From a virus, in UHGV virus genome UHGV-0073206: a stretch of 22,430 nucleotides of DNA. One strand, 5' to 3'. Made by a program: the position numbers and the translations under genes. Below are positions 7,339 to 22,430 of the stretch, piece after piece (position 1 is the stretch's first letter; each line of letters opens with the position of its first letter). The notes under the pieces are model-generated. The model was not told where the DNA came from and made no database searches. It worked only from the letters and a program-made list of their open reading frames with translations.

Positions 7339-7394
7339 ACTTCCTCCTGAAAATAAAAAAGGGCCACCAGCGACCCGTAAAAAAACACCCCGTC

Positions 7395-7416
7395 AAAGGC
7401 ATCCGCAGATGCCTTT
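7395..7416 (-). terminator. Hairpin (possible weak terminator or processing site) between the cargo cassette and the holin
   Basis: Perfect hairpin AAAGGCATC-CGCA-GATGCCTTT; the U-tract on the minus-strand transcript is displaced by 9 nt, so terminator function is uncertain. Confidence 0.3.
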
Positions 7417-7425
7417 TGTGTGATG

Positions 7426-7578
7426 TTATTCAGATTTACGCAGTAAAGGCCGGAGCACGACCAGCGCCATCGCCACCAGCACACCATCTGCCAGCACCGA
7501 CATCAGTCGTCCGGTGAAATCAACCACCACTACCAGAAACAACAGGATGACAGCCAGCACAAGGCGCGCACTTTTCAC
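7426..7578 (-). CDS. Small two-TM membrane protein (50 aa), GTG start overlapping the upstream stop
   Basis: V/MKSARLVLAVILLFLVVVVDFTGRLMSVLADGVLVAMALVVLRPLLRKSE; GTG overlaps TGA of the TerB-domain gene (GTGA) with GGAG 9 nt upstream; below the ORF-track cutoff. Confidence 0.4.
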   Translation of the reverse strand: MKSARLVLAVILLFLVVVVDFTGRLMSVLADGVLVAMALVVLRPLLRKSE

Positions 7579-8177: not shown

Positions 8178-8300
8178 GCCTTTTTCCCTTTTCTGGTTAA
8201 CGTGACATACCAATACCTCTTGTCGAAAAAGCCAGCAAGCTGAAAGACCAGTATTCACAACTACCAGCGCGTTTAATGTTCTGTGCCGTTTTTCAGGCAT

Positions 8301-10742: not shown

Positions 10743-10814
10743 CTGTTTTCTCTGCTGGCGCAGCAGGTGCCAGTTGTTCAGGCTGACGGATGGATTGTAA
10801 ACCAGAACGACCAG

Positions 10815-10840
10815 AAAAAACAAAACCCGCCGAAGCGGGT
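10815..10840 (-). terminator. Rho-independent terminator of the hok transcript
   Basis: On the minus-strand transcript: CCCGC-UUCG-GCGGG followed by UUUUGUUUUUU. Confidence 0.6.
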
Positions 10841-10909
10841 TAAGTGCGGGTGCGTTGAGGATGCCTGACACATCAGCGGTGGCGAGGGATTTCTCCCCCG
10901 CCGGGTCTC

Positions 10910-11065
10910 TTACTCCTCAGGTTCGTAAGCTGTGAAGACAGCGACCTCCGTCTGGCCGGTTCGGATTCGTACCTCGCAGAGGTCTTTCCTCGTTACCAGT
11001 GCCGTCACTATGACGGTTAAACAGATGACGATCAGGGCGATTAACATCGCCTTTTGCTGCTTCAT
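10910..11065 (-). CDS. hok: Hok/Gef-family type I toxin (51 aa)
   Basis: MKQQKAMLIALIVICLTVIVTALVTRKDLCEVRIRTGQTEVAVFTAYEPEE: single TM helix followed by the conserved C...R..GQ/T.EV.A...YE motif of Hok/Gef toxins. Confidence 0.85.
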   Translation of the reverse strand: MKQQKAMLIALIVICLTVIVTALVTRKDLCEVRIRTGQTEVAVFTAYEPEE

Positions 11066-11122
11066 AGCCTGCTTCTCCTTGCCTTTCGGCACGTAAGAGG
11101 CTAACCTACATTTGTGAGACAT
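10910..11122 (-). CDS. mok: Mok-like N-terminally extended frame overlapping hok (translational-coupling ORF)
   Basis: 70-aa in-frame extension (MSHKCRLASYVPKGKEKQA + Hok); the size relationship matches recalled mok/hok pairs. Not independently verifiable here. Confidence 0.35.
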   Translation of the reverse strand: MSHKCRLASYVPKGKEKQAMKQQKAMLIALIVICLTVIVTALVTRKDLCEVRIRTGQTEVAVFTAYEPEE

Positions 11123-11241
11123 AGATTGGGCCTCAGATTAATGTTAAGCGTCTTGCAGGACGCGTAATGTTAACTGGGGCTTTTCTCTATCTGCCTTTTG
11201 GTGTTCATGCCTGAGACAGATAGCCTCAAGCACCCGCAGTT

Positions 11242-11269
11242 ATTCTACTTAACTAAGATTTCCCCGCAA
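11242..11269 (-). promoter_or_regulatory. Candidate hok promoter (-35 TTGCGG, 16-nt spacer, -10 TAGAAT)
   Basis: Hexamers read on the minus strand; the predicted start falls just upstream of a 5' segment (plus 11224-11239) complementary to the 3' segment (plus 10844-10860), like the tac/fbi fold-back pairing of hok mRNAs. Confidence 0.4.
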
Positions 11270-11324
11270 ACCGTTTTTGTCCGGCACAGTAAATATCCAA
11301 CTAAACCAATGGCGTTCGCTGTAT

Positions 11325-11543
11325 TTACCGCCAGCATTCAATGCACATGACCGCCATGAACACCCCTAAAAAAAGGGCATTTATATGTCCAAACATTAAT
11401 ATCAAAACATCAATTTTTTCCATATACCTTGCTGTGAAGATGATGGGCATACATGATGCGAACAACCAGAACGCAACAAACAAAAACTGCAATGCGTTTT
11501 TCATTATTCCCCCTACAATCAATGTGCAATAACATTTAAACAC
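11325..11543 (-). CDS. Small hydrophobic membrane protein (59-72 aa, two TM segments)
   Basis: AT-rich ORF; MKNALQFLFVAFWLFASCMPIIF...INALFLGVFMAVMCIECW; no recognised family; adjacent to the hok locus. Confidence 0.4.
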   Translation of the reverse strand: MFKCYCTLIVGGIMKNALQFLFVAFWLFASCMPIIFTARYMEKIDVLILMFGHINALFLGVFMAVMCIECWR

Positions 11544-11624
11544 ACCTCAATTTGGCCGGACATATAAATATCTAAACCAGAAAAAATCACTTACATAGCG
11601 TTACAAACTCTTTAGTCTAAATAT

Positions 11625-12140
11625 TCATCGTAAAACATCCTCCACGCTTATCAGTCCATTTCGTTTCAGGTAATCCATCGCCTTCTCCGGTAATTTGCAG
11701 TCCGGCTGAGCTTTTTTCAGTTGACTGACCAGTCGTTTAACCCACATTGTTAATTCGCTAACCTGATTGCCGGATGCTGGTGGATTGTCGGCTTTACCCA
11801 GAATGGCAGCGCAGCAGGCCTCTCTGAGCACCCAGTCAACAGCATCCTTCCATGCTCCTGTTTCGACTGGCGGATTCTCACGCTTTACCTGTTCATAAAA
11901 GCGCACGGCTTTAACCAGTCCTTCTGATGTCACCGGGACTGGCGGGCCGATGAATAAGGCCTGAATTTCATAGTTCGGCCTGTCGTTACAATCCTCTTTT
12001 GTCGGTACATATTTCCAGTCACCAGCCCACGGCTTCCCCTGAAAGTCTGTAACGTCTTTTTTCACGTAGCGATATCGCCATGCAACTGGTTTTGCCTGCC
12101 CTGCCGTTTCATGCCCTTCCTGATAATTAATCTCGCTCAT
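11625..12140 (-). CDS. Hypothetical phage protein (171 aa)
   Basis: Soluble, Trp/Pro-rich N-terminal half, start overlapping the upstream gene stop (ATGA); no confident family. Confidence 0.5.
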   Translation of the reverse strand: MSEINYQEGHETAGQAKPVAWRYRYVKKDVTDFQGKPWAGDWKYVPTKEDCNDRPNYEIQALFIGPPVPVTSEGLVKAVRFYEQVKRENPPVETGAWKDAVDWVLREACCAAILGKADNPPASGNQVSELTMWVKRLVSQLKKAQPDCKLPEKAMDYLKRNGLISVEDVLR

Positions 12141-12313
12141 TCATCGCCCCACTCATCACAATATGCTTCGACCGGAGTTTTTCCTGCTTCATAATCATCA
12201 CGCCATGCTTCAGCATCAGCAGCACTGCCACCACGTAACTCTGCATAGTCCATTAACAGTTCATGCCATTCTTCAAAACTGACGTTGTATTTAGTTGAAC
12301 CAAAATCAGCCAT
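12137..12313 (-). CDS. Hypothetical small protein (58 aa)
   Basis: MADFGSTKYNVSFEEWHELLMDYAELRGG...; SD GAGGAAG; start overlaps the end of the acidic ORF upstream and the stop overlaps the next gene start; below the ORF-track cutoff. Confidence 0.4.
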   Translation of the reverse strand: MADFGSTKYNVSFEEWHELLMDYAELRGGSAADAEAWRDDYEAGKTPVEAYCDEWGDE

Positions 12314-12488
12314 TTTGTTCTTCCTCTTCGTCTTTTATTTCGTGATATGAGTAATTGCAGTAGTTAAAGAAAATATCTTTTGCTTCGTCATGTATTTCAT
12401 CAGGCGTCGCATCATCATCCACTTCGAATTCATCCTCGAAATCTCCACCGGCTATTCCCGTTTCAATAATTATTTTAAACTTTCGCAT
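12306..12488 (-). CDS. Small highly acidic protein (60 aa)
   Basis: MRKFKIIIETGIAGGDFEDEFEVDDDATPDEIHDEAKDIFFNYCNYSYHEIKDEEEEQNG; Asp/Glu-rich throughout; a GC hairpin (GCCGCCCGAAAGGGCGG) sits between a distal SD-like AGGAGG and the ATG. Confidence 0.45.
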   Translation of the reverse strand: MRKFKIIIETGIAGGDFEDEFEVDDDATPDEIHDEAKDIFFNYCNYSYHEIKDEEEEQNG

Positions 12489-12581
12489 TTAACTACCGCC
12501 CTTTCGGGCGGCCTCCTGATGTTCTGAGGGTGCAGAAATCCCTCCGGTTAAGGATTAAATTTTTAACAGAGCTAAATTTAA

Positions 12582-12938
12582 TTATTCAGTTCTGGATTTT
12601 GTCGCCCTGCGTATCCGCGCTTTCGCGTTACGCTCAATCTGAATTAGCTTTTCTATATTTTTTCGCCTTTCCCGCTCCTCCTGACGCAAGAGCCTTACAT
12701 CATCTGCCAGTCTGGTTTCTCTTTTCGCCACAGAGAGCATCCAGTCAAATGGCTCCACAACTGCACCGCAGATTTTACAGCGGACCTGACGCTCTTTTTC
12801 GTCAACCCGGACAGAGGCGTGATGACAATATGGTCTTTCCGATGGCTCATAAAGAAAATTAACCTGATTACGAGGGTCATCCTCTTTTACCGGAAATAAA
12901 ACGATATTGCTTAACTCATCCTCTGGTTTTATTTCCAT
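12582..12938 (-). CDS. Hypothetical protein with zinc-ribbon-like C-H...C-x2-C motif and Arg-rich coiled-coil tail
   Basis: 118 aa; PYCHHASVRVDEKERQVRCKICG then RLLRQEERERRKNIEKLIQIERNAKARIRR; no confident family. Confidence 0.5.
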   Translation of the reverse strand: MEIKPEDELSNIVLFPVKEDDPRNQVNFLYEPSERPYCHHASVRVDEKERQVRCKICGAVVEPFDWMLSVAKRETRLADDVRLLRQEERERRKNIEKLIQIERNAKARIRRATKSRTE

Positions 12939-13018
12939 GCTCCTCTCCTTTGATGCGAATGCCAGCGACGCGTAATGCGTGTTCTAGGTCAATCAGGTAA
13001 AGCCAACTGCCATTTTCT

Positions 13019-13213
13019 TTAGGTACCCGAACGATTCAGGATTTTTTCCACCCGCAACTGGCGATTCTGGCGGTTGATCTCCTCGCTACGTTTTCGCCCT
13101 TCTGCCAGTTGCCACTCGCGCCACTCGTCCACTGTCCGGTACGGCGCGATTACATGCTGCGGGGTCAGCTTACGGATACGCTCAAGAACACCACCTGTCG
13201 CGATATTTTTCAT
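13019..13213 (-). CDS. Hypothetical small protein (64 aa)
   Basis: ORF immediately downstream of the replication gene, Arg-rich C-terminus; no recognised family. Confidence 0.4.
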   Translation of the reverse strand: MKNIATGGVLERIRKLTPQHVIAPYRTVDEWREWQLAEGRKRSEEINRQNRQLRVEKILNRSGT

Positions 13214-13219
13214 GGCCCG

Positions 13220-14185
13220 TTACCCCCTGAACCCCGGCGGAATTTCGGTATCCGGCTCAGAAATATGATTCACGCAACGCTGTACAGACGAACGCCCCAG
13301 GCGGATAACCAGTTCATCCCATTTTTCGCGAAGCTTTGACGGACTCATGATATTTTTTACCCAGAATGGATCCCGCTGCGCCCGACCAAACATTTCACAA
13401 ATTTGTCTGTGAGTTCTGCCATCCAGCATCCGCATTGTGCGCACGTCGTTGGCCCATGCGGTCCAGTTGGGTTCTTTCGGTCGCGAAATCTCGCCATCAT
13501 CGCTGGCGGCCTGCTCGTAAAGACTCACGATTCGTCCCCAGATCCACTGCGCACACGCCAAATCTTCCTGGTTGCCCCACTGGCGTTTTTTTGCACTGAA
13601 CACAACCGCGTCAGGGTGTCGGGTTAAAAAATCCTGTTCAACCGTCTGCGGGTCCGGTTGCGAAGCTTCCGGACGAGAAGTGTTTTTATTCTCTGTAGTA
13701 ATCTCTGTTGTATTCTCTGTAAGATCATCAGGCCATTTTGACCCGATGACATTGAGTCGTTTTGAACCAATGGAACGTGCCATTTTGGCCCCTTCCATCG
13801 TGTCATTCTGACCTGATGGAGCAGCGCATTTTGACCTGATGGATTCGCTCACTTTGCCACCATTTAAAAGCTCGCTCTCGTAATTAATCGTGTAAAAATT
13901 AGTCATATCACGCTTTGATTTATTGAGCTTTTCGCAACGCAAAAGCCCCAGCGTTTTCAGACTTGCAAATGCGCGTTTTAACGTTGACTCTGACCAGAAC
14001 GGGAACTGCTCCAGCCATTGTTCTGTTGTGTTATAAATCCAGCGAACACCATCACATTCCATGCCGGAACCGGTATCTCTCAACCAGTAATGCAACTGCT
14101 GCAACACGATGGCTTCGTTCAGACCAATTTTCATCGCCAGCTGCGTGTTTATAACCAGCGGACGTTCAGCAAAAAGGAGCTTCAT
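13220..14185 (-). CDS. Phage replication initiator (lambda O-like replisome organiser) with internal origin repeats
   Basis: 321 aa; N-terminal HTH-like region (LNEAIVLQQLHYWL) typical of phage replication initiators; the central low-complexity stretch (TENTTEITTENKN) is encoded by DNA repeats as in the lambda O gene; lies after cro/cII-like genes. No helicase-loader gene follows. Confidence 0.65.
   Translation of the reverse strand: MKLLFAERPLVINTQLAMKIGLNEAIVLQQLHYWLRDTGSGMECDGVRWIYNTTEQWLEQFPFWSESTLKRAFASLKTLGLLRCEKLNKSKRDMTNFYTINYESELLNGGKVSESIRSKCAAPSGQNDTMEGAKMARSIGSKRLNVIGSKWPDDLTENTTEITTENKNTSRPEASQPDPQTVEQDFLTRHPDAVVFSAKKRQWGNQEDLACAQWIWGRIVSLYEQAASDDGEISRPKEPNWTAWANDVRTMRMLDGRTHRQICEMFGRAQRDPFWVKNIMSPSKLREKWDELVIRLGRSSVQRCVNHISEPDTEIPPGFRG
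13683..13870. repeat. Candidate origin of replication: 3 copies of TTCTCTGTA-like repeat and about 6 iterons (~23-bp period, core CATTTTGACCYGATGG) with adjacent AT-rich segment
   Basis: Seen directly: ATTCTCTGTAG / ATCTCTGTTG / ATTCTCTGTAA at 13686-13722; iterons CCATTTTGACCCGATGAC, CGTTTTGAACCAATGGAAC, CCATTTTGGCCCCTTCCATC, TCATTCTGACCTGATGGAG, GCATTTTGACCTGATGGATTC, TCACTTTGCCACCATTT at 13733-13870; AT-rich 13861-13920. Confidence 0.55.
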
Positions 14186-14206
14186 CCCCCCCCCCAGAAC
14201 ACGTTA

Positions 14207-14632
14207 TCAATGCGCCACCACGGCATTTCCCGCCGGACCACCACGATTCATCTGATCGAACAACACGATCGCTGCCGCAACAAACTCATCGATATCTTTC
14301 ACCAGGCGCTCCCGTCGCTCGACAAGCTCCCGGTGATATTCCGAACTGTGGCTGCGCATTCGGGCCACCAGTGGAGGCGGCATTGCTTTTTCGATCGCCG
14401 GTAACAACGCCTGAATTTTTTTAACCGCATCAGGGGTGTCTTTTTCTACCCAGCGGAAAATTTTCTGGGTATTACGAGACAGGGCTTCCGGATGGCTGTC
14501 GTCATACAGTTCAGGAAACGTCATACCCAACTCAAAATAAGCCTGGGTTATTCCAGCTACTGGAACTTTTTCGCCATCAGGACGCGCCCAGGCATTCATC
14601 GCCATGCGGATGTGTTCATGCTTGATTTTCAT
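14207..14632 (-). CDS. YdaT-like protein (CII-analogous regulator family, Rac-type)
   Basis: 141 aa beginning MKIKHEHI..., matching the recalled YdaT N-terminus and size; follows and overlaps the YdaS-like gene. Confidence 0.6.
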   Translation of the reverse strand: MKIKHEHIRMAMNAWARPDGEKVPVAGITQAYFELGMTFPELYDDSHPEALSRNTQKIFRWVEKDTPDAVKKIQALLPAIEKAMPPPLVARMRSHSSEYHRELVERRERLVKDIDEFVAAAIVLFDQMNRGGPAGNAVVAH

Positions 14633-14888
14633 GAATCAACTCCGGTGCATTTGATGTGTTAACCTTGAATCCAACAGGTAAACCGTCGGTTGGGTTAGGA
14701 TAAATATCAGGGCGAATTTCATGCGGGGTAACTTCCCACTTCATTAGCTGACATAACGGAATTACCTGCTTTGGGGGAACGTCAAAGCTAAACCATTGCC
14801 AAACTGTCTGTTGAGCGACCCCCATATAACGACCTATTTCAGCTTGAGTGTATTTCTGCCTAATTTTTTCGCGAGTGCTATCTAGCAT
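14616..14888 (-). CDS. YdaS-like Cro-type HTH regulator
   Basis: 90 aa, HTH (TQAEIGRYMGVAQQTVWQW) and EV.P.EIRPDIYP segment resembling Rac YdaS; divergently oriented to the repressor gene across an operator-containing intergenic region; SD GAGGAGAG. Confidence 0.65.
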   Translation of the reverse strand: MLDSTREKIRQKYTQAEIGRYMGVAQQTVWQWFSFDVPPKQVIPLCQLMKWEVTPHEIRPDIYPNPTDGLPVGFKVNTSNAPELIHENQA

Positions 14889-14925
14889 TTTGCTCTCCTC
14901 TAAAAAACTATAAGCAAAACCTACA

Positions 14926-14959
14926 ATAAAAAACTGTACACAATCAACAGTTTTTTATT
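14926..14959. promoter_or_regulatory. Operator-like inverted repeat in the divergent repressor/cro-like promoter region
   Basis: AATAAAAAACTGT-ACACAATCA-ACAGTTTTTTATT; same half-site (AAAACTGT / ACAGTTTT) as the repeat at 15962-15992. Confidence 0.5.
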
Positions 14960-14997
14960 GTGATGCTTTTAACAGTATTTACCTGTAAAATTGAATA

Positions 14998-15399
14998 ATG
15001 ATGAACGCCCTAGAAGTATCTATGTACAGAATCAGCAAGCTTCTTCAGGAAACTGGATGGAGCCAGGCTGAGCTTGCCCGTAGAATTGGTGTGACACAAC
15101 AAACTGTTCAACAATGGGTCAGCGGTAAGGCTACACCTAAAGCCTCAAGTTTGGATAAACTGGTTGAGGTTACAGGGCATCCATTGCATTGGTTTTTATT
15201 GCCTCCTGAAGAGGGGGAGCAAATTTTCACCCCTGACACGATGAAAATTGGTCCTCGTCAACGCGAACTGCTCCAGGCTTTTAGTGCGTTTCCAGAGGAA
15301 GACCAAGAAAAAATGCTTCAAGAAATCAAAGACAAGAAAAAATCAATGGAAGAAACCATTGCCCGGTGGTTGGCGGCACAAAAAAGCCGCCGGGCGTGA
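14998..15399 (+). CDS. XRE-family HTH repressor (PaaR2/RacR-like), candidate prophage repressor
   Basis: 133 aa; HTH (GWSQAELARRIGVTQQTVQQWVSGK) then HPLHWFLLPPEE; occupies the cI position divergent from the cro-like gene and directly upstream of the antitoxin/toxin pair. Confidence 0.75.
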   Translation: MMNALEVSMYRISKLLQETGWSQAELARRIGVTQQTVQQWVSGKATPKASSLDKLVEVTGHPLHWFLLPPEEGEQIFTPDTMKIGPRQRELLQAFSAFPEEDQEKMLQEIKDKKKSMEETIARWLAAQKSRRA

Positions 15400-15426
15400 C
15401 CACAGTACAAGAAGAGGAGTTATGCC

Positions 15427-15618
15427 ATGAGTACAGCCCTTTCTCCGATAGTTTCAGAATTCGAAACTACCGAACAAGAAAACAGTTACAACGAATGGTT
15501 ACGCGCTAAAGTGGCGTCAAGCCTTGCAGACCCTCGTCCCTCAATTCCACATGATGAGGTAATGGCTGAAATGGAGAATCTTATTGCTCAAATTGCTGTA
15601 ACTAACAGGAGCGAGTAA
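15427..15618 (+). CDS. paaA2: PaaA2-like antitoxin
   Basis: 63 aa; SPIVSEFETTEQENSYNEWLRAKVASSLADPRPSIPHDEV matches the recalled PaaA2 antitoxin of the PaaR2-PaaA2-ParE2 module; SD AGGAG 9 nt upstream; stop overlaps the toxin start (TAATG). Confidence 0.7.
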   Translation: MSTALSPIVSEFETTEQENSYNEWLRAKVASSLADPRPSIPHDEVMAEMENLIAQIAVTNRSE

Positions 15619-15905
15619 TGTTACCCATTTTGTGGCTACCATCTGCTCGCGATGATTTGCGTCAGATCGTAGCCTATATTGCTAAGGAAAATATTCCTGC
15701 AGCACGCAGACTAAAAATACGGATTGAAACGTCTGTTTTAGCCCTCTCTGAGCATCCATATCTATATCCGCCAAGTGATCGAGTATCCGGTTTGCGGGAA
15801 ATTGTGGTTCACCCTAATTATATCGTTTTGTACCGAGTAGCAGCTTCAAGCATTGAAATTGCAAATATTGTGCATGCCCGCCGACAATTTCCCTTCCCTA
15901 TCTGA
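15618..15905 (+). CDS. parE2: ParE/RelE-superfamily toxin (ParE2-like)
   Basis: 95 aa; ParE-like features (DDLRQIVAYIAKENIPAARRL...LSEHPYLYPPSDRVSGLREIVVHPNYIVLYRV); translationally coupled to the antitoxin. Confidence 0.8.
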   Translation: MLPILWLPSARDDLRQIVAYIAKENIPAARRLKIRIETSVLALSEHPYLYPPSDRVSGLREIVVHPNYIVLYRVAASSIEIANIVHARRQFPFPI

Positions 15906-15922
15906 ACTGAACAATTTTCACA

Positions 15923-15947
15923 CCCCCTCATTCGAGGGGGTTTTTTT
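15923..15947 (+). terminator. Rho-independent terminator after parE2-like gene
   Basis: CCCCCTC-ATTC-GAGGGGG followed by TTTTTTT. Confidence 0.7.
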
Positions 15948-15961
15948 GTCCAACACAACAA

Positions 15962-16001
15962 TTAAAAACTGTTGACACAAAACAGTTTTTAATTGTAGAT
16001 T
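15962..16001 (+). promoter_or_regulatory. Early-left (dicB-operon) promoter overlapped by operator inverted repeat
   Basis: -35 TTGACA (15972-15977), 18-nt spacer, -10 TAGATT (15996-16001); overlapped by TTAAAAACTGTTGACACAAAACAGTTTTTAA sharing the half-site of the 14926-14959 repeat. Confidence 0.55.
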
Positions 16002-16177
16002 ATTTCCACTACCCCACCCCGCCCCACAGAACGCAGGGCAATACTTCGAGTTACCCGGCAGTGGTCAGGGGTTAAGTAGCCAGCCCGAGGCGTAAGAACA
16101 TGACGGCAGGGTTCAACTTTAACTATGCAGCAGGTTTTTGTTCCGCTACCCCGGCGTTAAGGGGAAATGAGGTCAGC

Positions 16178-16333
16178 ATGGATACTATCGATCTTGGCAA
16201 CAACGAATCTCTGGTGTGCGGCGTGTTTCCCAATCAGGACGGCACGTTCACCGCGATGACGTATACCAAAAGCAAAACGCTTAAAACCGAAAATGGTGCC
16301 CGTCGCTGGCTGGAAAGAAACTCAGGTGAGTGA
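16178..16333 (+). CDS. ydfA: YdfA/YdaF-like small protein (51 aa)
   Basis: Start at Met MDTIDLGNNESLV... with SD GAGG; matches recalled YdfA/YdaF of Qin/Rac prophages; first gene of the dicB-type operon. Confidence 0.6.
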   Translation: MDTIDLGNNESLVCGVFPNQDGTFTAMTYTKSKTLKTENGARRWLERNSGE

Positions 16334-16334
16334 T

Positions 16335-16463
16335 ATGGATTTCAACACAATCATGGAAAAGGCTTACGAAGAATACTTCGAAGGCCTTGCCGAAGGCGAA
16401 GAAGCCCTCAGCTTCAGCGAATTTAAACAGGCGCTTTCCAGTTCGGCAAAATCTAACGGCTGA
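16335..16463 (+). CDS. ydfB: YdfB-like small protein (42 aa)
   Basis: MDFNTIMEKAYEEYFEGLAEGEEALSFSEFKQALSSSAKSNG; start 1 nt after the ydfA-like stop; size and position match YdfB. Confidence 0.5.
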   Translation: MDFNTIMEKAYEEYFEGLAEGEEALSFSEFKQALSSSAKSNG

Positions 16464-16492
16464 TAAGCGAAGCAGCACCGCGAGGAATCAGT

Positions 16493-16711
16493 ATGCAGAA
16501 ACGAGAACCCGTCATCATCGCGCCAGACTATACCGATGATGAACTTTATGAGTGGATGCACCAGAAAATTAAGGCTGCGCAGGACCTGAAATGGGCCAAT
16601 GAAGCCAGGGCTAAGCAGGCTGAAAATCTGTCCGCTCTGGAGCAGGATATCACCAATCTGGAAAAAGCAGCGGCATTAAGCATTGCCAGAATGATTACAT
16701 ACCCACGTTAA
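16493..16711 (+). CDS. ydfC: YdfC-like protein (72 aa)
   Basis: 72-aa coiled-coil-like ORF third in the operon; size and order match YdfC of Qin-type dicB operons. Confidence 0.55.
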   Translation: MQKREPVIIAPDYTDDELYEWMHQKIKAAQDLKWANEARAKQAENLSALEQDITNLEKAAALSIARMITYPR

Positions 16712-16733
16712 TGGTTAACCAACGAGGCTAATA

Positions 16734-17339
16734 ATGGAATTTAAAGATTTACCAAAAGAAATCCAGATAATTGCTGCAACGACACTCGGTGATAGTCTGG
16801 TGAAAATTGACCCGGCATACACCAAAAAAGAAACCATCGATAATATGGTTCGTAATGTGCGCAATGCTTTTTCAGGGCTATATGGTTCTGATAATCAAAA
16901 ACAGGAAAACGATATTGATGAACGGGTAATTTCTGTTTGCCTGAATGGTCATGTTATTTCAGCAATCAGAACAGAAACGGCAACTGCTTTTGATTATCTC
17001 TGCATGATTCAGAGTCTTGCCGATGTTCTGTTGAAATCAAAAGATTTAGAAAACGATGCAAATTTACAGGGGCGCACAATAGCACATCCATATGCACATA
17101 TTTTAAGCTCTGTGGATGTTAAAAATAATACCCTGCAAGTTGCTTTCGAACATTCACCGCAAGAGTTAAAAACGAAAAAAGACGATGCGGATAAAAATAA
17201 TAACGATGCACCTGATTTGTTTATTATCAGCTCAAAGCTGCTGGAAATCATGAAGAGCGAGCTTGAAAAACACAACATCAAGCCCACTTCTGTAAATTTA
17301 CGATGGGTAATGAGGATTATTGACGCTTCTCTGTCATAA
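16734..17339 (+). CDS. Hypothetical protein (201 aa), AT-rich cargo gene inserted between ydfC-like and DicF-like
   Basis: Clean 201-aa ORF, visibly more AT-rich than flanking genes, starting 23 nt after ydfC-like; no recognised domain; Lys/Asp/Asn-rich with no TM segment. Confidence 0.6.
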   Translation: MEFKDLPKEIQIIAATTLGDSLVKIDPAYTKKETIDNMVRNVRNAFSGLYGSDNQKQENDIDERVISVCLNGHVISAIRTETATAFDYLCMIQSLADVLLKSKDLENDANLQGRTIAHPYAHILSSVDVKNNTLQVAFEHSPQELKTKKDDADKNNNDAPDLFIISSKLLEIMKSELEKHNIKPTSVNLRWVMRIIDASLS

Positions 17340-17439
17340 GCTTCTTATCCAGGAATGCTTCAAATGTATTGTAAATGGCGTCAATTTCCCCCATTTGCTC
17401 GGTAGCAAGAGAAATGGCGTGAGATAGTGAAAGGGGCAC

Positions 17440-17508
17440 CTAGCAATGGGCGTTAAAGGTTTCCACGGCCAGGCGCATAAGAAACATTACTTTTTCTTCT
17501 TGTGTCAT
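17440..17508 (-). CDS. 22-aa ORF with near-consensus SD (MTQEEKVMFLMRLAVETFNAHC); possible small peptide or chance ORF
   Basis: ATG preceded by AGGAGG at 9-nt spacing on the minus strand; lies within the ORF-poor segment downstream of the 201-aa gene. Confidence 0.2.
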   Translation of the reverse strand: MTQEEKVMFLMRLAVETFNAHC

Positions 17509-17832
17509 AAATTTCACCCTCCTGAGGGTTGGTAATTAAGGAGTTCTCCACGGGTGAGGTGGAGTGTGTGCGCCGGACACGGGTGAGCATCCGGCACTGA
17601 CAGTTTACAGAAAGGATATATCCCTGAAAAGTCAGGGCATAACGCGAAAGCGCACGGCGAGGTAGTTGGTTCATAGATAGCCTGTCGTTAAATTTTCGTC
17701 GACCGTGCGCTTCCGGTTGTGGCACTCCGCGAAATGGCGCGGCGGTAAGTATGGCGGGGTTATTCCTTCCCCGTTGAGGACACCGGGTTGTCAGGTTGAC
17801 CATACGCCTGAGTGACAACTCCGCTACAACAA

Positions 17833-17895
17833 CCCATGTTGATTACCTTTTGGCGGGTATTCGTTTTGTTTTTCCCGTGATACCCGCCCCTTTTA
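17833..17895 (+). ncRNA. dicF: DicF-like small RNA (divergent 5' region, conserved 3' terminator stem)
   Basis: ...UUGAUUACCUUUUGGCGGGUAUUCGUUUUGUUUUUCCCGUGAUACCCGCCCCUUUU has the same architecture as recalled DicF (…UUUGGCGGUAUCAGUUUUACUCCGUGACUGCUCUGCCGCCCUUUUU): GGCGG stem, CCGUGA, CCGCCC+U-tract; lies ~175 nt upstream of dicB as in Qin. 5' boundary is approximate. Confidence 0.4.
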
Positions 17896-17898
17896 AAG

Positions 17899-18054
17899 TG
17901 AATTTTGTGATGCGGTGAATGCGGCTCAGCGCACGCGGAACAGTTAAAACAAGCGGTCTTTTACTTGCGTAACAGACATCAACTAACAATCCGGCGTTAA
18001 TTGTTGACTGGTTAACGTCACCTGGAGGCACCAGGCACCGCATCACAAAATTCA
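17899..18054 (+). other. Perfect 19-bp inverted repeat pair (TGAATTTTGTGATGCGGTG ... CACCGCATCACAAAATTCA) enclosing 118 nt; candidate RNase III processing duplex between DicF-like and dicB
   Basis: Arms at 17899-17917 and 18036-18054 are exact reverse complements; located between the DicF-like terminator and the dicB SD. Confidence 0.45.
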
Positions 18055-18071
18055 TTGTTGAGGACGCGATA

Positions 18072-18260
18072 ATGGAAACGTTATTACCAAACGTTAATAC
18101 GTCTGAAGGTTGTTTTGAAATTGGTGTCACTATCAGTAACCCAGTATTTACTGAAGATGCCATTAACAAGAGAAAACAAGAACGGGAGCTATTAAATAAA
18201 ATATGCATTGTTTCAATGCTGGCCCGTTTACGCCTGATGCAAAAAGGATGCTGGCAATGA
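18072..18260 (+). CDS. dicB: Cell division inhibitor DicB
   Basis: 62 aa METLLPNVNTSEGCFEIGVTISNPVFTEDAINKRKQERELLNKICIVSMLARLRLMQKGCWQ, near-identical to recalled DicB; SD GAGGA at 8-nt spacing. Confidence 0.8.
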   Translation: METLLPNVNTSEGCFEIGVTISNPVFTEDAINKRKQERELLNKICIVSMLARLRLMQKGCWQ

Positions 18261-18460
18261 ATACTACATTTGCACTTGTTCTGACGGTTTTTCTTGTTTC
18301 CAGTGAACCGGTTGACATGGTTACTGGCGTATACGGCTCAATGAAAGAATGCATGGTTGCCGCAGCGGAACAGAAAATTCCCGGTAACTGTTATCCGGTC
18401 GATAAAGTTATTCACATGGATAATAACGAAATCCCGGCAGGACTTAAAACAGCACCGTAA
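18257..18460 (+). CDS. ydfD: YdfD-like small protein with N-terminal hydrophobic segment
   Basis: Start ATG overlaps the dicB stop (ATGA); MNTTFALVLTVFLVSSEPVDM...; position and size match YdfD of Qin-type operons. Confidence 0.5.
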   Translation: MNTTFALVLTVFLVSSEPVDMVTGVYGSMKECMVAAAEQKIPGNCYPVDKVIHMDNNEIPAGLKTAP

Positions 18461-18540
18461 TTAATATCCGGTTTCATTTTTATATGCCAGCAATGGCAGG
18501 GATTTGTTCACCCTTAAATCTGTAATGAGGTTAAAACAAA

Positions 18541-21012
18541 ATGAGTAAAGTCTTTATTTGCGCCGCCATTCCGGACGAACAGGCAATAAAGGAAGAAGGT
18601 GCAGTCGCTGTAGCCACTGCCATTGAAGCCGGCGACGAACGTCGCGCCCGTGCCAAATTTACCTGGCAATTCCTGGAGCAATATCCGGCTGCTCAGGACT
18701 GCGCTTATAAATTTCTTGTCTGCGAGGATAAACCCGGCATGCCCCGCCCTGCCATCGACTCTTGGGATGCTGAATATATGCAGGAAAACCGCTGGGATGA
18801 GGAGTCAGCTTCCTTTGTCCCGGTTGAGACTGAATCAGATCCGATGAACGTCACTTTTGACAAGCTGGCCCCTGAAGTACAGAACGCTGTCATGGTTAAG
18901 TTCGACACATGTGAAAACATCACCGTTGATATGGTGATTAGTGCACAGGAACTGTTGCAGGAAGACATGGCAACATTCGACGGACATATCGTTGAAGCGT
19001 TGATGAAAATGCCAGAAGTTAACGCCATGTATCCGGAGCTTAAGCTGCATGCCATCGGGTGGGTTAAGCATAAATGTAAGCCTGGAGCTAAATGGCCCGA
19101 AATTCAGGCAGAGATGCGCATCTGGAAAAAACGTCGCGAAGGTGAACGCAAGGAAACCGGAAAATACACGTCTGCTGCTGATCTCGTCCGCGCCAGAGCC
19201 AATCAACAGAACACTGAAAATTCAACAGGAAAAATCAGCCCGGTCATTGCTGCCACTCATCGCGAATACAAGCAGACATGGAAAACACTGGATGATGAAC
19301 TGGCCTACGCTCTGTGGCCTGGTGACATTGATGCCGGAAACATTGACGGCAGCATCCATCGCTGGGCAAAAAATGAAGTTATCGACAACGACCGCGAAGA
19401 CTGGAAGCGTATCTCGGCATCAATGCGCAAACAGCCTGATGCCCTTCGCTACGACCGCCAGACTATTTTTGGCCTTGTCCGTGAGCGTCCGATCGACATT
19501 CACAAAGACCCTGTGGCACTGAACAAATACATTACTGAATACCTGACTACAAAGGGCGTGTTTGAAGATGAAGGAACAAATCAGAGCGCAACTGATACTC
19601 TCTCGTCGCCAGTACCAGAAACTGATGCAGTGGAAACGGCAATTCCGGACAACGAAAAAACCGAATGCAAAGTGGAAGTCGAACCATCTGTAGAGCGTGA
19701 GGGGCCGTTCTACTTCCTCTTCACCGACAAGGATGGCGAAAAATACGGTCGCGCAAACAAACTTTCTGGTCTGGATAAGGCGCTGTCTGCTGGGGCTACT
19801 GAAATCACGAAAGAAGAATATTTCGCCCGCAAAAACGGTACATACTCAGGTTCACAACAAAATACTGGTGCATCTGACACGACCGCACAACCAGGGTCAG
19901 TAAAAGTTACCGCTGACGAAGTAAACAAAATTATGCAGGCAGCCAATATCAGCCAGCCTGACGCCGATGAACTGCTTGCAGTATCACGTGGTGAATTTGT
20001 TGCAGGAATTAGCGATCCGAATGATCCGAAATGGGTGAAGGGGATGGAAACCCGCGATTCTGTGAACCAGAACCAGCAAGAAACGGAACAGAACGGCCAG
20101 AAAGCGGAACAAAACAGCCCAAATGCGTTACAAAACGAGCCAGAAACGAAACAGCCTGAACCAGTAGTGCAACAGGAACCGGAAAAGATCTGCACCGCCT
20201 GCGGTCAGACCGGCGGCGGCAACTGCCCTGATTGTGGCGCGGTGATGGGCGACGCAACATACCAGGAAACATTCGATGAAGAGTATCAGGTTGAAGTTCA
20301 GGAAGATGATCCGGAGGAAATGGAAGGCGCTGAACATCCAAACAAGAAGAACACTGGCGGCAATCAGCATCACAATAGCGATAATGAAACTGGCGAGATG
20401 GCAGATCACTCAATTAAGGTGAACGGTCATCACGAAATCACATCCGCCAGTAGGACGTGTGACCATCTAATGATCGACCTTGAAACCATGGGAAAAAATC
20501 CTGATGCCCCGATCATCTCAATAGGTGCAATATTTTTCGATCCGCAAACCGGAGATATGGGACCGGAATTTAGTAAGACTATCGATCTGGAAACTGCTGG
20601 CGGAGTCATTGATCGGGACACCATTAAATGGTGGCTTAAGCAATCACGCGAAGCGCAATCTGCCATTATGACCGATGAAATCCCGTTAGATGATGCACTG
20701 TTACAATTGCGGGAATTTATCGACGAAAACTCCGGTGAATTTTTTGTTCAGGTCTGGGGAAATGGAGCCAACTTCGACAACACGATTTTGCGCCGTTCAT
20801 ACGAACGGCAGGGGATCCCCTGCCCGTGGCGTTACTACAACGATCGCGATGTACGCACAATCGTTGAGCTGGGGAAAGCCATAGACTTCGATGCCAGAAC
20901 GGCTATCCCATTCGAAGGTGAGCGCCATAATGCACTTGATGACGCTCGTTACCAGGCAAAATACGTTTCAGCTATCTGGCAAAAACTGATCCCGAGTCAG
21001 GCTGATTTTTAA
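18541..21012 (+). CDS. RecE-like (YdfE-like) protein with C-terminal DEDDh 3'-5' exonuclease domain
   Basis: 823 aa; central region (SRGEFVAGISDPNDPKWVKG...CTACGQTGGGNCPDCGAVMGDATYQETF) matches recalled Rac RecE including the CxxC-x9-CxxC zinc ribbon; the C-terminus carries DnaQ-like motifs (HLMIDLETMG; VWGNGANFD; HNALDDARYQAKY) instead of RecE's PD-(D/E)XK nuclease domain. No recT follows. Confidence 0.7.
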   Translation: MSKVFICAAIPDEQAIKEEGAVAVATAIEAGDERRARAKFTWQFLEQYPAAQDCAYKFLVCEDKPGMPRPAIDSWDAEYMQENRWDEESASFVPVETESDPMNVTFDKLAPEVQNAVMVKFDTCENITVDMVISAQELLQEDMATFDGHIVEALMKMPEVNAMYPELKLHAIGWVKHKCKPGAKWPEIQAEMRIWKKRREGERKETGKYTSAADLVRARANQQNTENSTGKISPVIAATHREYKQTWKTLDDELAYALWPGDIDAGNIDGSIHRWAKNEVIDNDREDWKRISASMRKQPDALRYDRQTIFGLVRERPIDIHKDPVALNKYITEYLTTKGVFEDEGTNQSATDTLSSPVPETDAVETAIPDNEKTECKVEVEPSVEREGPFYFLFTDKDGEKYGRANKLSGLDKALSAGATEITKEEYFARKNGTYSGSQQNTGASDTTAQPGSVKVTADEVNKIMQAANISQPDADELLAVSRGEFVAGISDPNDPKWVKGMETRDSVNQNQQETEQNGQKAEQNSPNALQNEPETKQPEPVVQQEPEKICTACGQTGGGNCPDCGAVMGDATYQETFDEEYQVEVQEDDPEEMEGAEHPNKKNTGGNQHHNSDNETGEMADHSIKVNGHHEITSASRTCDHLMIDLETMGKNPDAPIISIGAIFFDPQTGDMGPEFSKTIDLETAGGVIDRDTIKWWLKQSREAQSAIMTDEIPLDDALLQLREFIDENSGEFFVQVWGNGANFDNTILRRSYERQGIPCPWRYYNDRDVRTIVELGKAIDFDARTAIPFEGERHNALDDARYQAKYVSAIWQKLIPSQADF

Positions 21013-21073
21013 TGTTCAACCGTCGCCAGTTGTCGTTGGTATTCTGCAACTGGCGTGTTCCGGAGTGATAGCC

Positions 21074-21343
21074 ATGAGCGAACAGTACCTGATAACGCTC
21101 GACGAGTGGAAACCAAAACGGTTCAGTCTCCCAATAACAAACACTACCCTGGTGAAATACGGAAAACTAGGATACATCGTTCCAAGACCACAAAAAATTC
21201 GTGGGCGTTGGCTGATAGATCGCCGGGCAGTATTTGTTGGACCTGGTGAAACGGGAATTGCGCCGGAAATTCATACTGGCGATGATGATGCACTGAAGGA
21301 GATTTTAACTCATGTCACCGAGGCCACGAAAAAACAGCACTGA
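21074..21343 (+). CDS. xis: Excisionase (Xis-like)
   Basis: 89 aa from ATG with SD GGAG; small basic protein (LITLDEWKPKRFSLPITNTTLVKYGKLGYIVPRPQKIRGRWLIDRRA) immediately upstream of and overlapping the integrase gene. Confidence 0.65.
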   Translation: MSEQYLITLDEWKPKRFSLPITNTTLVKYGKLGYIVPRPQKIRGRWLIDRRAVFVGPGETGIAPEIHTGDDDALKEILTHVTEATKKQH

Positions 21344-22430
21344 CGTAACCGGTCTTTACGAAAAGTTTGATCGCAGAACTGGCAGGGTTTACTACCAGTA
21401 TAAAAACCCTGTGACTGGAAAATTTCACGGTCTCGGAACAGACAAAGGCAAAGCAGAAAAAATCGCTTCCACAGCCAATCAGCGAATAGCTGCAGCAGAA
21501 GCTGAATATTTCATGCGCAAAATTGATGAAAGTCCGTCAGCAACAAAACGTCGGGGTATCAGATTAAAGGCATGGGTTGATCGATATCTGAAAATACAGG
21601 ACACGCGACTGAAAAATGGGGATATTGCAACTACAACTCACAAAGAAAAAGCCCGAATGGCTGCATACCTGGTTTCCCGTCTGGGAAACCACCCATTGAA
21701 AGAACTGGAAGTAAGAGACTTTGCATTAATACTGGATGAGTGGCTGGATAAAGACATGGTCAGCACAGCGAGAGTAAATCGTGGATTATGGGTTGATATT
21801 TATAAAGAAGCACAGCATGCAGGGGAAGTTCCTCCTGGATGGAATCCTCCGGAGGCTACCCGTAAACCGATCCCTAAAGTAACCAGAGCCAGGCTCACCC
21901 TGGAAGACTGGCAAAAAATTTACAACGCAACGCCTGAAAAACACTTTATCCGTAACGCAATGCTTCTTGCGATTGTTACTGGTCAGCGCCGTGATGACAT
22001 TTGCCACATGCGTTTTTCAGATGTGTGGAACGAACACCTGCATATCACCCAGGGAAAAACCGGAATGCGTCTGGCGTTACCGCTTACACTACGCTGTGAT
22101 GCCATTGGGATAACGTTAAAAGAAGTTATTGATGGGTGCCGAGACAGAATATTAAGTCCATATCTAATCCATAGTCGGCACCAGAAACAACCGAAGCCGA
22201 TGAGTAAAGACAACCTGAGCGACTACTTTGCCAAAGCACGGGATCTGGCTGGGATAATTCCACCAGCAGGAAAAACTCCGCCAACATTTCATGAACAACG
22301 CTCTCTATCAGAACGGCTGTACCGTGCACAGGGTATCGATACAAAAACATTACTAGGACATAAAGTCCAGGCAACCACCGATCGCTATAACGATACTCGA
22401 GGTCAGGAATGGGTTAAGTTGGTTATTTGA
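21312..22430 (+). CDS. int: Lambda-family tyrosine integrase
   Basis: 372 aa; strong similarity to recalled lambda Int motifs: LAIVTGQRRDDICHMRFSD (Arg), PPTFHEQRSLSERLY (His-x-x-Arg), LLGHKVQATTDRYNDTRGQEW (catalytic Tyr); stop is the last codon of the window. Confidence 0.9.
   Translation: MSPRPRKNSTDVTGLYEKFDRRTGRVYYQYKNPVTGKFHGLGTDKGKAEKIASTANQRIAAAEAEYFMRKIDESPSATKRRGIRLKAWVDRYLKIQDTRLKNGDIATTTHKEKARMAAYLVSRLGNHPLKELEVRDFALILDEWLDKDMVSTARVNRGLWVDIYKEAQHAGEVPPGWNPPEATRKPIPKVTRARLTLEDWQKIYNATPEKHFIRNAMLLAIVTGQRRDDICHMRFSDVWNEHLHITQGKTGMRLALPLTLRCDAIGITLKEVIDGCRDRILSPYLIHSRHQKQPKPMSKDNLSDYFAKARDLAGIIPPAGKTPPTFHEQRSLSERLYRAQGIDTKTLLGHKVQATTDRYNDTRGQEWVKLVI

Follow-up and report, generated by a model that had tools for sequence, protein, structure and literature searches.

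The region between positions 14,916 and 16,001 of the 22,430-nucleotide virus genome analyzed here (UHGV-0073206, hereafter the window) is very probably the lysis/lysogeny switch, or immunity region, of a decayed lambdoid prophage sitting between potB and potC. A CI-like repressor would act on divergent promoters through five 15-bp operator sites, and the paaA-parE toxin-antitoxin pair encoded behind it would be cargo; this explanation as a whole, with the switch, the five-site operator model and the cargo status of the pair taken jointly, is held with high confidence. The operators and promoters assigned to this allele are predictions, and their coordinates are collected with those of the genes in Table 1.

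The biology of such regions was already published in 2010 and 2021 (Hallez 2010; Jurenas 2021), and E. coli O157:H7 prophages are known to carry a ParE-type toxin-antitoxin pair within the repressor operon. On CP-933P, PaaR2 is the CI analogue working at OR and OL, YdaS corresponds to Cro and YdaT to CII, and an addictive toxin-antitoxin pair is present; for this paralogous module, experiments demonstrated that a single CI-like protein governs immunity as well as expression of the toxin-antitoxin pair, which stabilizes the prophage (PMC8630535). The authors of the CP-933P work detected ParE2 activity in neither state of the switch, so the biological role of the pair is still a proposal. The gain offered by this analysis is modest, and consists of a concrete operator model for a CP-933M-type allele, with five 15-bp ACA-N9-TGT sites and conservation across genera, and of evidence in favor of treating paaA-parE as movable cargo, as opposed to an integral partner of the repressor.

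Table 1. Features of the immunity region, in window coordinates; operators, promoters and terminator are predicted
Feature	Position	Strand	Details
ydaT-like gene (CII analogue)	14207..14632	-	141 aa; Pfam YdaT_toxin E 3.2e-10; PHROG 163 'CII-like transcriptional activator' E 3.5e-47
ydaS-like gene (Cro analogue)	14616..14888	-	90 aa; Pfam YdaS_toxin E 1.6e-9; PHROG 35 'transcriptional repressor' E 8.5e-28
YdaT box	14622..14639		TTGATTTTCATGAATCAA at the ydaS/ydaT junction; exact TTGATT-N6-AATCAA
Putative PR	14918..14946	-	-10 TAGGTT (14923-14918), -35 TTGATT (14946-14941), towards ydaS
OR1	14923..14937		ACAATAAAAAACTGT; exact ACA-N9-TGT; left arm of 39-bp palindrome
OR2	14947..14961		ACAGTTTTTTATTGT; exact ACA-N9-TGT; right arm of 39-bp palindrome
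OR3	14972..14986		ACAGTATTTACCTGT; exact ACA-N9-TGT outside palindrome; abuts repressor promoter -10
PRM-like -10 and 6 nt	14986..14997	+	TAAAAT (14986-14991), no Shine-Dalgarno before ATG
CI-like repressor	14998..15399	+	133 aa; Pfam HTH_3 E 1.7e-13
PaaA-family antitoxin	15427..15618	+	63 aa; Pfam PaaA2 E 1.1e-21; PDB 3zbe E 1.5e-22
ParE-family toxin	15618..15905	+	95 aa; Pfam ParE_toxin E 6.6e-16; PDB 5cw7 ParE2 E 1.2e-37
Intrinsic terminator closing predicted repressor-antitoxin-toxin operon	15922..15948	+	8-bp GC-rich stem, then T7
OL2	15958..15972		ACAATTAAAAACTGT; final T is first base of PL -35
PL-like early-left promoter	15972..16001	+	TTGACA (15972-15977), 18-nt spacer, TAGATT (15996-16001)
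OL1	15982..15996		ACAGTTTTTAATTGT; inside PL spacer; final T starts -10
First early-left gene (ydfA-like, DUF1391)	16178..16333	+	Pfam DUF1391 E 2.6e-27

Predicted operator sites and the two palindromes

An earlier, sequence-only reading of this region placed two inverted repeats at 14926-14959 and 15962-15992. Both are real and match one another, though each extends slightly further than was given, to 14923-14961 (39 bp, perfect 15-nt arms, 9-nt spacer) and to 15958-15996 (39 bp, 16-nt arms, 7-nt spacer). They are the sole perfect inverted repeats in the 22.4-kb window with arms of at least 11 nt and a loop of at most 12 nt, while 100 dinucleotide shuffles produced a mean of 0.07 such repeats and a longest arm of 12 nt. 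The 44-nt units in which they lie (14918-14961 and 15958-16001) are 80% inverted copies of one another. The OR/OL-like arrangement put forward in that reading is likewise borne out, with the same operator sequence flanking the operon at PR/PRM and at the early-left promoter.

What probably does not stand is the proposed unit of recognition, the AAAACTGT/ACAGTTTT half-site pair. A 15-bp ACA-N9-TGT site is favored in its place and is most likely what the repressor would recognize, with three such sites at OR and two at OL. Seven exact matches to ACA-N9-TGT occur in the 22.4 kb, five of them within the two control regions and one of these (at 14972) outside the palindromes. Because the count across the whole window is near expectation (7 found, 6.2 expected), with no over-representation, the weight of the motif comes only from its clustering and its conserved positions. 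The OR sites lie upstream of the repressor ATG by 75, 51 and 26 nt (OR1 and OR2 being 24 nt apart) in the window, in an O157:H7 locus (L002), in Salmonella (L010/L011) and in Raoultella (L012/L013), and OR3 is also conserved in L014. In each of these loci the DUF1391 gene is preceded by a pair of OL sites spaced 23-25 nt apart, and the joining of OL2 to the -35 element is repeated in L002, L010 and L012. Among 46 half-sites, positions A1 and C2 never vary and A3 is present in 96%, giving a predicted site form of ACA(A/G)(T/G)-N5-...TGT; the site centers vary freely among relatives, and OR1 and OR2 of Serratia are each one base off ACA-N9-TGT. The comparison covers four or five lineages, and because these share ancestry the conservation of operator positions is partly inheritance. 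Among toxin-antitoxin-carrying E. coli loci there are six repressor/cro allele types, each with a motif of its own that is common to its OR and OL.

The perfection of the arms over 15-16 nt at both loci, and the retention of the arrangement in the window, L001, L002 and L008, could instead suggest that each 39-bp palindrome is one unit, in which the inner AAAACTGT/ACAGTTTT half-sites are bound by a symmetric oligomer or the DNA is extruded as a cruciform. That account is improbable. The site pairs of Salmonella and Raoultella are not mutual mirror images, and no 39-bp palindrome is formed by the Salmonella sites, yet each site retains its ACA...TGT ends; the palindrome does not include the third site, which has the same ends; and the OL spacer of L002 is one base longer, so the spacing of the inner half-sites is not fixed. 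The inner half-sites are also about 15 bp apart, which places them on opposite faces of the DNA, an unusual geometry for a helix-turn-helix dimer as such proteins are understood. With the 15-bp site as the unit, OR1 with OR2 and OL2 with OL1 would be mirror images by chance in the E. coli allele, producing the two palindromes.

RNA hairpins or terminators, or SOS (LexA) boxes, were also considered in place of repressor operators, and this is a highly improbable interpretation. The palindromes do give stable folds (-16.3 and -17.6 kcal/mol, z about -6), 15958-15996 was flagged as terminator-like by the scan, and the inner CTGT...ACAG looks like a LexA box. Both palindromes, however, lie between the -35 and -10 elements of PR and PL and would thus be untranscribed from those promoters; a strong GC-rich terminator already stands ahead of the OL copy, while the palindrome stems are almost pure A/T. 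The RNA candidates were rejected on the position of the folds inside promoters and on the Salmonella homologues, which lack the hairpin yet have the 15-bp sites. The LexA candidate was rejected on spacing, since a LexA box is CTGT-N8-ACAG and the spacer here is N9 (N10 at OL in L002), with no exact LexA box in the window.

Predicted promoters and the divergent early genes

The early-left promoter, whose -35 TTGACA had been described as overlapped by one of the repeats, was recovered as the only consensus match in 14550-16250 (10/12), and relatives share its flanks, TGACA and AGATT. PR was placed through the homology of its 44-nt unit with the PL unit and through a position conserved in relatives; its hexamers are weak matches to consensus (4/6 and 3/6), below the cutoff applied in the consensus scan. 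The intergenic region between the repressor and ydaS, 109 bp in length, holds the three OR sites, and the Shine-Dalgarno sequence AGAGGAGAG lies upstream of ydaS. On the repressor side, the -10 hexamer and the 6-nt gap to the ATG are conserved in relatives and the six nucleotides themselves vary (TGAATA, CGAGAA, TCTCTC, TTACGC). The paaR2 mRNA is experimentally leaderless, with the order GATAAT, 6 nt, ATG (PMC8630535), and on the same geometry the repressor mRNA of the window is predicted to be leaderless as well.

The published YdaT site, TTGATT-N6-AATCAA, is matched in the window with fewer than two mismatches at this YdaT box alone, and the position of the box corresponds to that of the published OM site at the end of ydaS (PMC9986795). 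A search by consensus for a PRE promoter beside the box gave no convincing hexamers. From the DUF1391 gene onward, the gene order is that found after dicA in Qin and in all related loci.

The repressor

The reading frame at 14998-15399 does occupy the cI position that the sequence-only reading gave it, divergent from ydaS and ydaT. Its product consists of an XRE/434-like N-domain, a linker and PaaR/DicA-type C-terminal helices. The AF2 model has a mean pLDDT of 80 and contains only two helices in the C-terminus (86-96 and 100-131), and fold-search matches were limited to the N-domain. No S24 (LexA-type) peptidase domain, the part that permits RecA-stimulated self-cleavage in the repressors of lambda, 434 and P22, was matched in the 133 residues in Pfam or NCBIfam.

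The earlier designation of this protein as a PaaR2-type regulator holds in part. The C-terminal half is of the PaaR type, but the protein is not PaaR2 itself and its 434-like DNA-binding domain is unrelated to that of PaaR2. Overall identity to PaaR2 is 34%. The likeness falls in the C-terminal half and reaches ~64%, counted by hand, across the final 47 residues; BLASTP against the PaaR2 of L005 returned E 7e-21 with 98 aa aligned at 42% identity, and those 47 residues were again the best-matching part. Among PDB sequences, the N-domain is closest to the 434 repressor (2r63, E 2e-5), and alignment of the recognition helices (TQQTVQQ in the window, TQQSIEQ in 434) places the Gln residues in agreement. 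Judged from these alignments, the repressor is a heteroimmune allele relative to PaaR2. No solved PaaR2 structure was present in the PDB copy searched; PaaR2 is octameric in solution. Among sequenced phages, no repressor was found at 60% identity or above, and the phage matches include Gifsy-1/2 (33%), mEp237 (33%) and the N-domains of Stx-phage CI proteins (44-49%).

The paaA-parE pair and its relatives

The family assignments made for the two downstream proteins were confirmed. The 63-aa protein, described as PaaA2-like, scores 76.9 bits against Pfam PaaA2 (cutoff 27) and agrees with the PaaA2 fragment in the PDB at 40 of 54 residues; the 95-aa protein, described as ParE-family, scores 59 bits (cutoff 23) and aligns with the ParE2 of 5cw7 over residues 1-93 at 65% identity. 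The coupling of the two genes is a one-base overlap of stop and start codons (TAATG), and the strong terminator noted after the toxin consists of a stem at 15922-15941 and a T7 run (-15.9 kcal/mol, z -4.8). Gaps of 27 nt (repressor-antitoxin) and -1 nt (antitoxin-toxin), a single terminator after parE, and a consensus promoter scan that returned no promoter-like site inside the gene set are consistent with paaA and parE being co-transcribed behind the repressor up to the terminator. Both genes are under purifying selection, with dN/dS of 0.08-0.31 for the antitoxin and of 0.05-0.08 for the toxin where computable (L002, L003, L006).

The paaR2-paaA2-parE2 genes of CP-933P and the paaR1-paaA1-parE1 genes of CP-933M were reportedly named by Hallez in 2010. 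O157:H7 genomes carry two copies, one of the PaaR2 type and the other being L002, which is taken by elimination to be the homologue of the CP-933M paaR1-paaA1-parE1 module mentioned in PMC8630535, PMC4803016 and PMC3141249. The window and L002 share 98% of repressor, 90% of PaaA and 86% of ParE residues and the same five predicted operator sites, by which they are the same allele. Between the two, parE has diverged far more than the repressor (dS 1.35 and 0.08), which points to a recombination breakpoint within the toxin-antitoxin pair.

Could the three genes simply be an autonomous three-component toxin-antitoxin module, with an XRE protein regulating itself and palindromes that are module operators and not OR/OL? 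The paaR-paaA-parE systems were originally described as three-component operons under PaaR, and in each of the seven other E. coli loci examined that carry the toxin-antitoxin pair, a PaaR-type C-terminal domain is retained beside paaA. Set against this, repressors at 69-82% identity, with the same layout and similarly placed sites, occur in Salmonella, Raoultella and Serratia prophages that carry no paaA-parE; a second operator set lies past the operon terminator, on a promoter for the early-left genes; ydaS, ydaT and the YdaT box are all present; and the full-length architecture is shared with the prophage repressor DicA, which has no toxin-antitoxin pair. An autonomous module is quite improbable as the whole account of the region. 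Because its close homologues in the three other genera keep the layout and the similarly placed sites without the pair, the protein is regarded here as primarily a prophage repressor and not a toxin-antitoxin regulator.

As the Salmonella and Raoultella relatives carry the same repressor without the pair, paaA-parE would be exchangeable cargo, outside the switch proper, in the slot that rexAB holds in lambda. Between the repressor and OL, the slot contains paaA-parE in E. coli, uncharacterized ORFs of 112-133 aa in Salmonella and Raoultella, and 0.7 kb that is apparently gene-free in Serratia. It is possible, though rather doubtful, that the slot is exchangeable and expressed only in lysogeny, that its cargos provide new prophage-stabilizing or anti-phage functions, and that the operator mirroring in E. 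coli is selected. Should this be so, the Salmonella and Raoultella cargos would be analogues of RexAB, and the mirror-image pairing of operators would serve, for example, a symmetric tetramer or OR-OL pairing and would not be an accident of orientation.

Prophage decay

The description of the element as heavily degraded is correct. Compared with TD225-C4, an intact-looking relative in which potB and potC are 42.7 kb apart, the window is missing some 20 kb of genes for tail, head and terminase through several deletions, and 13026-22430 of the window is still collinear at 98.2% identity. The virion genes are lost and two toxin-antitoxin systems are retained, paaA-parE and hok/sok, which fits the published idea that such modules aid the persistence of prophage remnants. 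The sole Rfam match was sok, with neither dicF nor any other Rfam family found near the immunity region. By analogy with CP-933P, paaA-parE may be an addiction module that penalizes loss or replacement of the immunity region, a role that would fit an intact pair in a prophage missing about 20 kb of structural genes.

A proposed model of the switch

Combined, the predicted sites suggest how the switch may operate. OR1 (14923) and OR2 (14947) would cover PR, and the OL sites at 15958 and 15982 would bracket the -35 and fill the spacer of PL, such that repressor dimers filling OR1/OR2 and OL1/OL2 cooperatively would shut both promoters. The OR and OL sets, 1,035 bp apart, may perhaps be bridged through the C-terminal oligomerization domain that the repressor has in common with PaaR2. 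With more repressor, OR3 (14972), abutting the -10 of the repressor promoter, would be filled and the repressor's own promoter limited. YdaT bound at 14622-14639 would give an alternative rightward-to-repressor transcript.

Comparison with known systems

The closest described system is CP-933P/Sp12 (Jurenas 2021, PMC8630535; Prolic-Kalinsek 2023, PMC9986795), with which the window shares the order ydaT-ydaS / repressor-paaA-parE / terminator / PL-early-left genes, a ParE toxin at 65% identity, YdaT at 86% (to the CP-933P-type locus L005), an exact YdaT box and the 6-nt spacing between -10 and ATG. The DNA-binding N-terminal domain of the repressor and YdaS are, in contrast, unrelated (34% and 17% overall), and the four 18-bp palindromic operators of CP-933P (consensus GTTTAGTAA) differ from the predicted 15-bp ACA-N9-TGT sites of the window, three at OR and two at OL. 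By these comparisons, the window carries a different immunity type from CP-933P, with predicted 434-like operators.

As in the cI-rexA-rexB region of lambda, the repressor would be expressed from a weak leaderless promoter (in the window, a prediction) beside a tripartite OR, with accessory genes behind it, followed by a terminator and OL/PL, and Cro and CII analogues are divergent. The proteins of the window do not resemble CI, Cro or CII in sequence, an S24 autocleavage domain is absent, OL has two predicted sites and not three, and the cargo is a ParE toxin-antitoxin pair and not RexAB. The distance between OR and OL is 2.4 kb in lambda and 1.0 kb in the window.

The 434 operators have an outer consensus of ACAA. 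The window resembles 434 in the T-Q-Q-x-x-x-Q pattern of helix 3 and in predicted operators with conserved outer bases around a free, A/T-rich center, and differs in an unrelated C-terminal domain and in sites of 15 bp. Because 434 operators are 14 bp and not 15 bp, with the outer 4+4 bases conserved (PMC1636474), the analogy of contacts is imperfect.

DicA of the cryptic prophage Qin (E. coli K-12) aligns with the repressor over its full length (28% over 111 aa, E 2e-12), although the repressor scores 52.6 bits against the NCBIfam DicA model NF007257, below the cutoff of 101. In Qin, paaA-parE is absent between dicA and ydfA, while the genes downstream, ydfA-ydfB-ydfC-dicB, are the same as those in the window.

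Immunity region of a degraded prophage

The window, which extends from potB to the prophage integrase, can be compared with a 42.7-kb intact-looking relative that lies between potB and potC in strain TD225-C4. Relative to TD225-C4, the window has several deletions and lacks ~20 kb of tail, head, and terminase genes, while positions 13026-22430 remain collinear at 98.2%; this bears out the claim of the sequence-only reading that the element is degraded, and its early region is intact. The deletion junctions fall at 987-1123, 1959-1968, 2793-2799, and 4024-4031, and the ~20 kb lost in all comprises most of the genes for tail, baseplate, head, portal, and large terminase. At three junctions the adjoining blocks overlap by 7-10 nt, which may represent short repeats. 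Two segments (7384-8030 and 10786-13025) are without a megablast match in TD225-C4. An ORF at 7575-8300 (-) has a weak TerB-domain match (E 2.5e-7), and the ORFs at 11625-12140 (-) and 12582-12938 (-) had no Pfam match that exceeded the curated cutoff. A second toxin-antitoxin system, a type I hok/sok, is located at 10910-11235 (-), with the sok RNA at 11060-11235 (Rfam RF01794, 120 bits) and a Hok-like peptide ORF, containing ...MKQQKAMLIALIVICLTVIVTALVTRKDLCEV..., within 10910-11122. At the junction holding hok/sok in the window (~10785-11300), the otherwise collinear TD225-C4 has a ParD/ParE pair (L008 32176-32831), and this junction seems to be a second prophage slot that exchanges toxin-antitoxin modules.

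The sequence-only reading had further proposed that a repressor and a PaaA2/ParE2-type pair lie between two matching operators. The three co-oriented ORFs have the positions and sizes it described, the 63-aa and 95-aa proteins resemble PaaA2 and ParE2 in Pfam and PDB matches, and both inverted repeats exist, slightly larger than it had stated. The observation of three genes with flanking repeats is confirmed and its interpretation supported. The toxin ORF start overlaps the antitoxin ORF stop, and DUF1391/ydfA-like genes, an exonuclease, and the integrase follow 3' of the three genes.

Features of the immunity region (window positions)
Feature	Position	Strand	Remarks
Repressor, 133 aa	14998-15399	+	XRE helix-turn-helix; Pfam HTH_3, E 1.7e-13
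PaaA2-family antitoxin, 63 aa	15427-15618	+	Pfam, E 1.1e-21; PDB 3zbe, E 1.5e-22
ParE toxin, 95 aa	15618-15905	+	PDB 5cw7 (ParE2), E 1.2e-37
GC-rich hairpin with T7 tail	15922-15948		3' of toxin ORF
YdaS-family gene	14616-14888		divergent from repressor
YdaT-family gene	14207-14632		divergent from repressor
YdaT box	14622-14639		exact match, unique in window
Inverted repeat	14923-14961		15-nt perfect arms
Inverted repeat	15958-15996		16-nt arms
PL	15972-16001		promoter-like, TTGACA-18-TAGATT
PR (inferred)	14946-14941, 14923-14918		-35 TTGATT, -10 TAGGTT

Putative operator sites and promoters

No other perfect inverted repeats of such size occur in the window, and 100 dinucleotide shuffles gave a mean count of 0.07 with arms of at most 12 nt. 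Interpretation of the palindromes as RNA hairpins or LexA boxes fails on position, spacing, and conservation. The unit recognised by the repressor is proposed to be a 15-bp ACA-N9-TGT site. The window has seven exact matches, about as many as chance would give (6.2), and five of these fall within the two control regions: OR, between the repressor and ydaS (14923, 14947, and 14972), and OL, after parE (15958 and 15982). The site at 14972 (OR3) is outside the palindrome and adjoins a TAAAAT hexamer; the OL sites at 15958 and 15982 are OL2 and OL1.

This operator model was checked against repressor homologues from Salmonella, Raoultella, and Serratia (82%, 69%, and 76% identity, respectively), the first two with an unaltered recognition helix. 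Both Salmonella and Raoultella have three exact sites whose distances upstream of the repressor start codon (75, 51, and 26 nt) equal those in the window, and two more, 23-24 nt apart, upstream of the DUF1391 gene. Site centres vary freely between these loci and the window, and in Salmonella no 39-bp palindrome results. Serratia has the same frame of sites with one-base deviations. Among the 46 half-sites as a whole, positions A1 and C2 never vary, and A3 is present in 96%. A single 39-bp palindrome is unlikely to be the binding unit, in view of OR3, the additional site, and of the arrangement in Salmonella and Raoultella. Because the 15-bp sites are conserved across genera and Salmonella is without the palindrome, the E. 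coli palindromes are probably pairs of these sites mirror-imaged by chance. A degenerate half-site-like extra copy, TAAAAAACTATAAGCAA, at 14901-14917 (82% identical to 14927-14943) sits in the predicted ydaS 5' leader.

Among the compared E. coli loci with the toxin-antitoxin pair there are six repressor/cro allele types, each with its own motif common to the ydaS-repressor spacer and the region 3' of parE, the pattern that would be expected of heteroimmune operator sets. The putative operator set of this allele is not described in the literature consulted and is defined here from sequence comparison only.

PL is the sole promoter-like match in the region; the last T of OL2 is the first base of its -35, the last T of OL1 is the first base of its -10, and the flanks TGACA and AGATT are kept across genera. 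The placement of PR relies on inverted homology, as the 44-nt units surrounding the two repeats are 80% inverted copies of each other; it is weak by consensus and was not picked up by the promoter scan. A TAAAAT/TAGAAT hexamer is conserved 6 nt before the repressor ATG, and the intervening nucleotides vary (TGAATA, CGAGAA, TCTCTC, TTACGC), never forming a Shine-Dalgarno sequence in the compared loci. The same geometry (GATAAT-6 nt-ATG) occurs in paaR2, whose mRNA is leaderless by experiment (PMC8630535).

paaA-parE as probable cargo

Loci from Salmonella, Raoultella, and Serratia share the ydaT-ydaS-repressor layout but not paaA-parE, and thus the repressor is first of all a prophage repressor. 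The three genes are unlikely to form an autonomous three-component toxin-antitoxin module, since this repressor, with sites in similar places, also exists without the pair, which in this prophage lies in the slot that rexAB fills in lambda. In the three other genera, the slot between repressor and OL has unrelated small ORFs or no called gene. In Salmonella it holds a 112-aa ORF (L010 3077-3415, phrog_12509) and in Raoultella a 133-aa ORF (L012 3030-3431, phrog_34525), both without a Pfam match; in Serratia it consists of ~0.7 kb (L014 2900-3630) with no called gene. Where present, paaA-parE is under purifying selection (dN/dS 0.05-0.31). Of 5,426 complete E. coli genomes, 509 contain the 1.5-kb module (≥80% coverage); in IHE3034, for example, it sits in an apparently complete prophage.

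Comparison with known repressors

An AlphaFold2 model of the repressor, built on 30 homologues (mean pLDDT 80), consists of an XRE domain of five helices (residues 4-67), a linker modelled with low confidence (68-85), and two C-terminal helices (86-96 and 100-131), with PDB fold matches restricted to the N-domain. By sequence, the best solved relative of the N-domain is 434 repressor, with which it has in common the helix-3 pattern T-Q-Q-x-x-x-Q. The 434 operator has an ACAA consensus and Gln contacts. Like the sites described here, 434 operators conserve the outer bases and leave the centre free, though they are 14 bp rather than 15 bp. Qin DicA is related along its full length, though distantly (28% identity, below the NCBIfam cutoff). 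Because the repressor has no S24 peptidase domain, RecA-stimulated self-cleavage is not expected, and PaaR2 is likewise reported without it (PMC8630535). PaaR2 is octameric in solution (PMC8630535), and as the C-terminal domain is shared, bridging of OR and OL over 1,035 bp is plausible.

The interpretation agrees with the published paralogous module of cryptic prophage CP-933P, in which PaaR2 is a functional CI analogue that binds one operator set between its gene and ydaS and another at a PL-like promoter past the toxin-antitoxin genes (PMC8630535). YdaS and YdaT act there in Cro-like and CII-like fashion, the locus is bistable, and the addictive toxin-antitoxin pair is a proposed stabiliser of the immunity region (PMC8630535); the YdaT site, TTGATT-N6-AATCAA, lies at the end of ydaS (PMC9986795). 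Of the E. coli loci compared for their PaaA/ParE homologues, one (L005) encodes authentic PaaR2 (MQKKE...), a PaaA2 matching the PDB fragment at 54/54 residues, and ParE2 (99%). The window's repressor, PaaA, and ParE are 34%, 65%, and 65% identical to these, and the repressors resemble each other in the C-terminal half only (E 7e-21, 42% over 98 aa); a hand count from this alignment gives ~64% for the last 47 residues.

The O157:H7 genomes hold two copies, the PaaR2 type and one (L002) whose repressor, PaaA, and ParE are 98%, 90%, and 86% identical to those of the window. Identity to the latter copy is 95-99% from ydaS through the first half of paaA, operators included, and 74-85% in parE (dS 1.35 in parE vs 0.08 in the repressor), a difference that points to a recombination breakpoint inside the toxin-antitoxin pair. 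The mosaic boundary is seen in window 15498-15905 against L002 4072-4479. A homologue on CP-933M has been mentioned (PMC8630535, PMC9986795) and is elsewhere named paaR1-paaA1-parE1. As L002 is the non-PaaR2 copy of O157:H7, it and hence the window are, by elimination, of the CP-933M type, a second allele of an arrangement that, together with its proposed meaning, has already been published for the paralogues in O157:H7.
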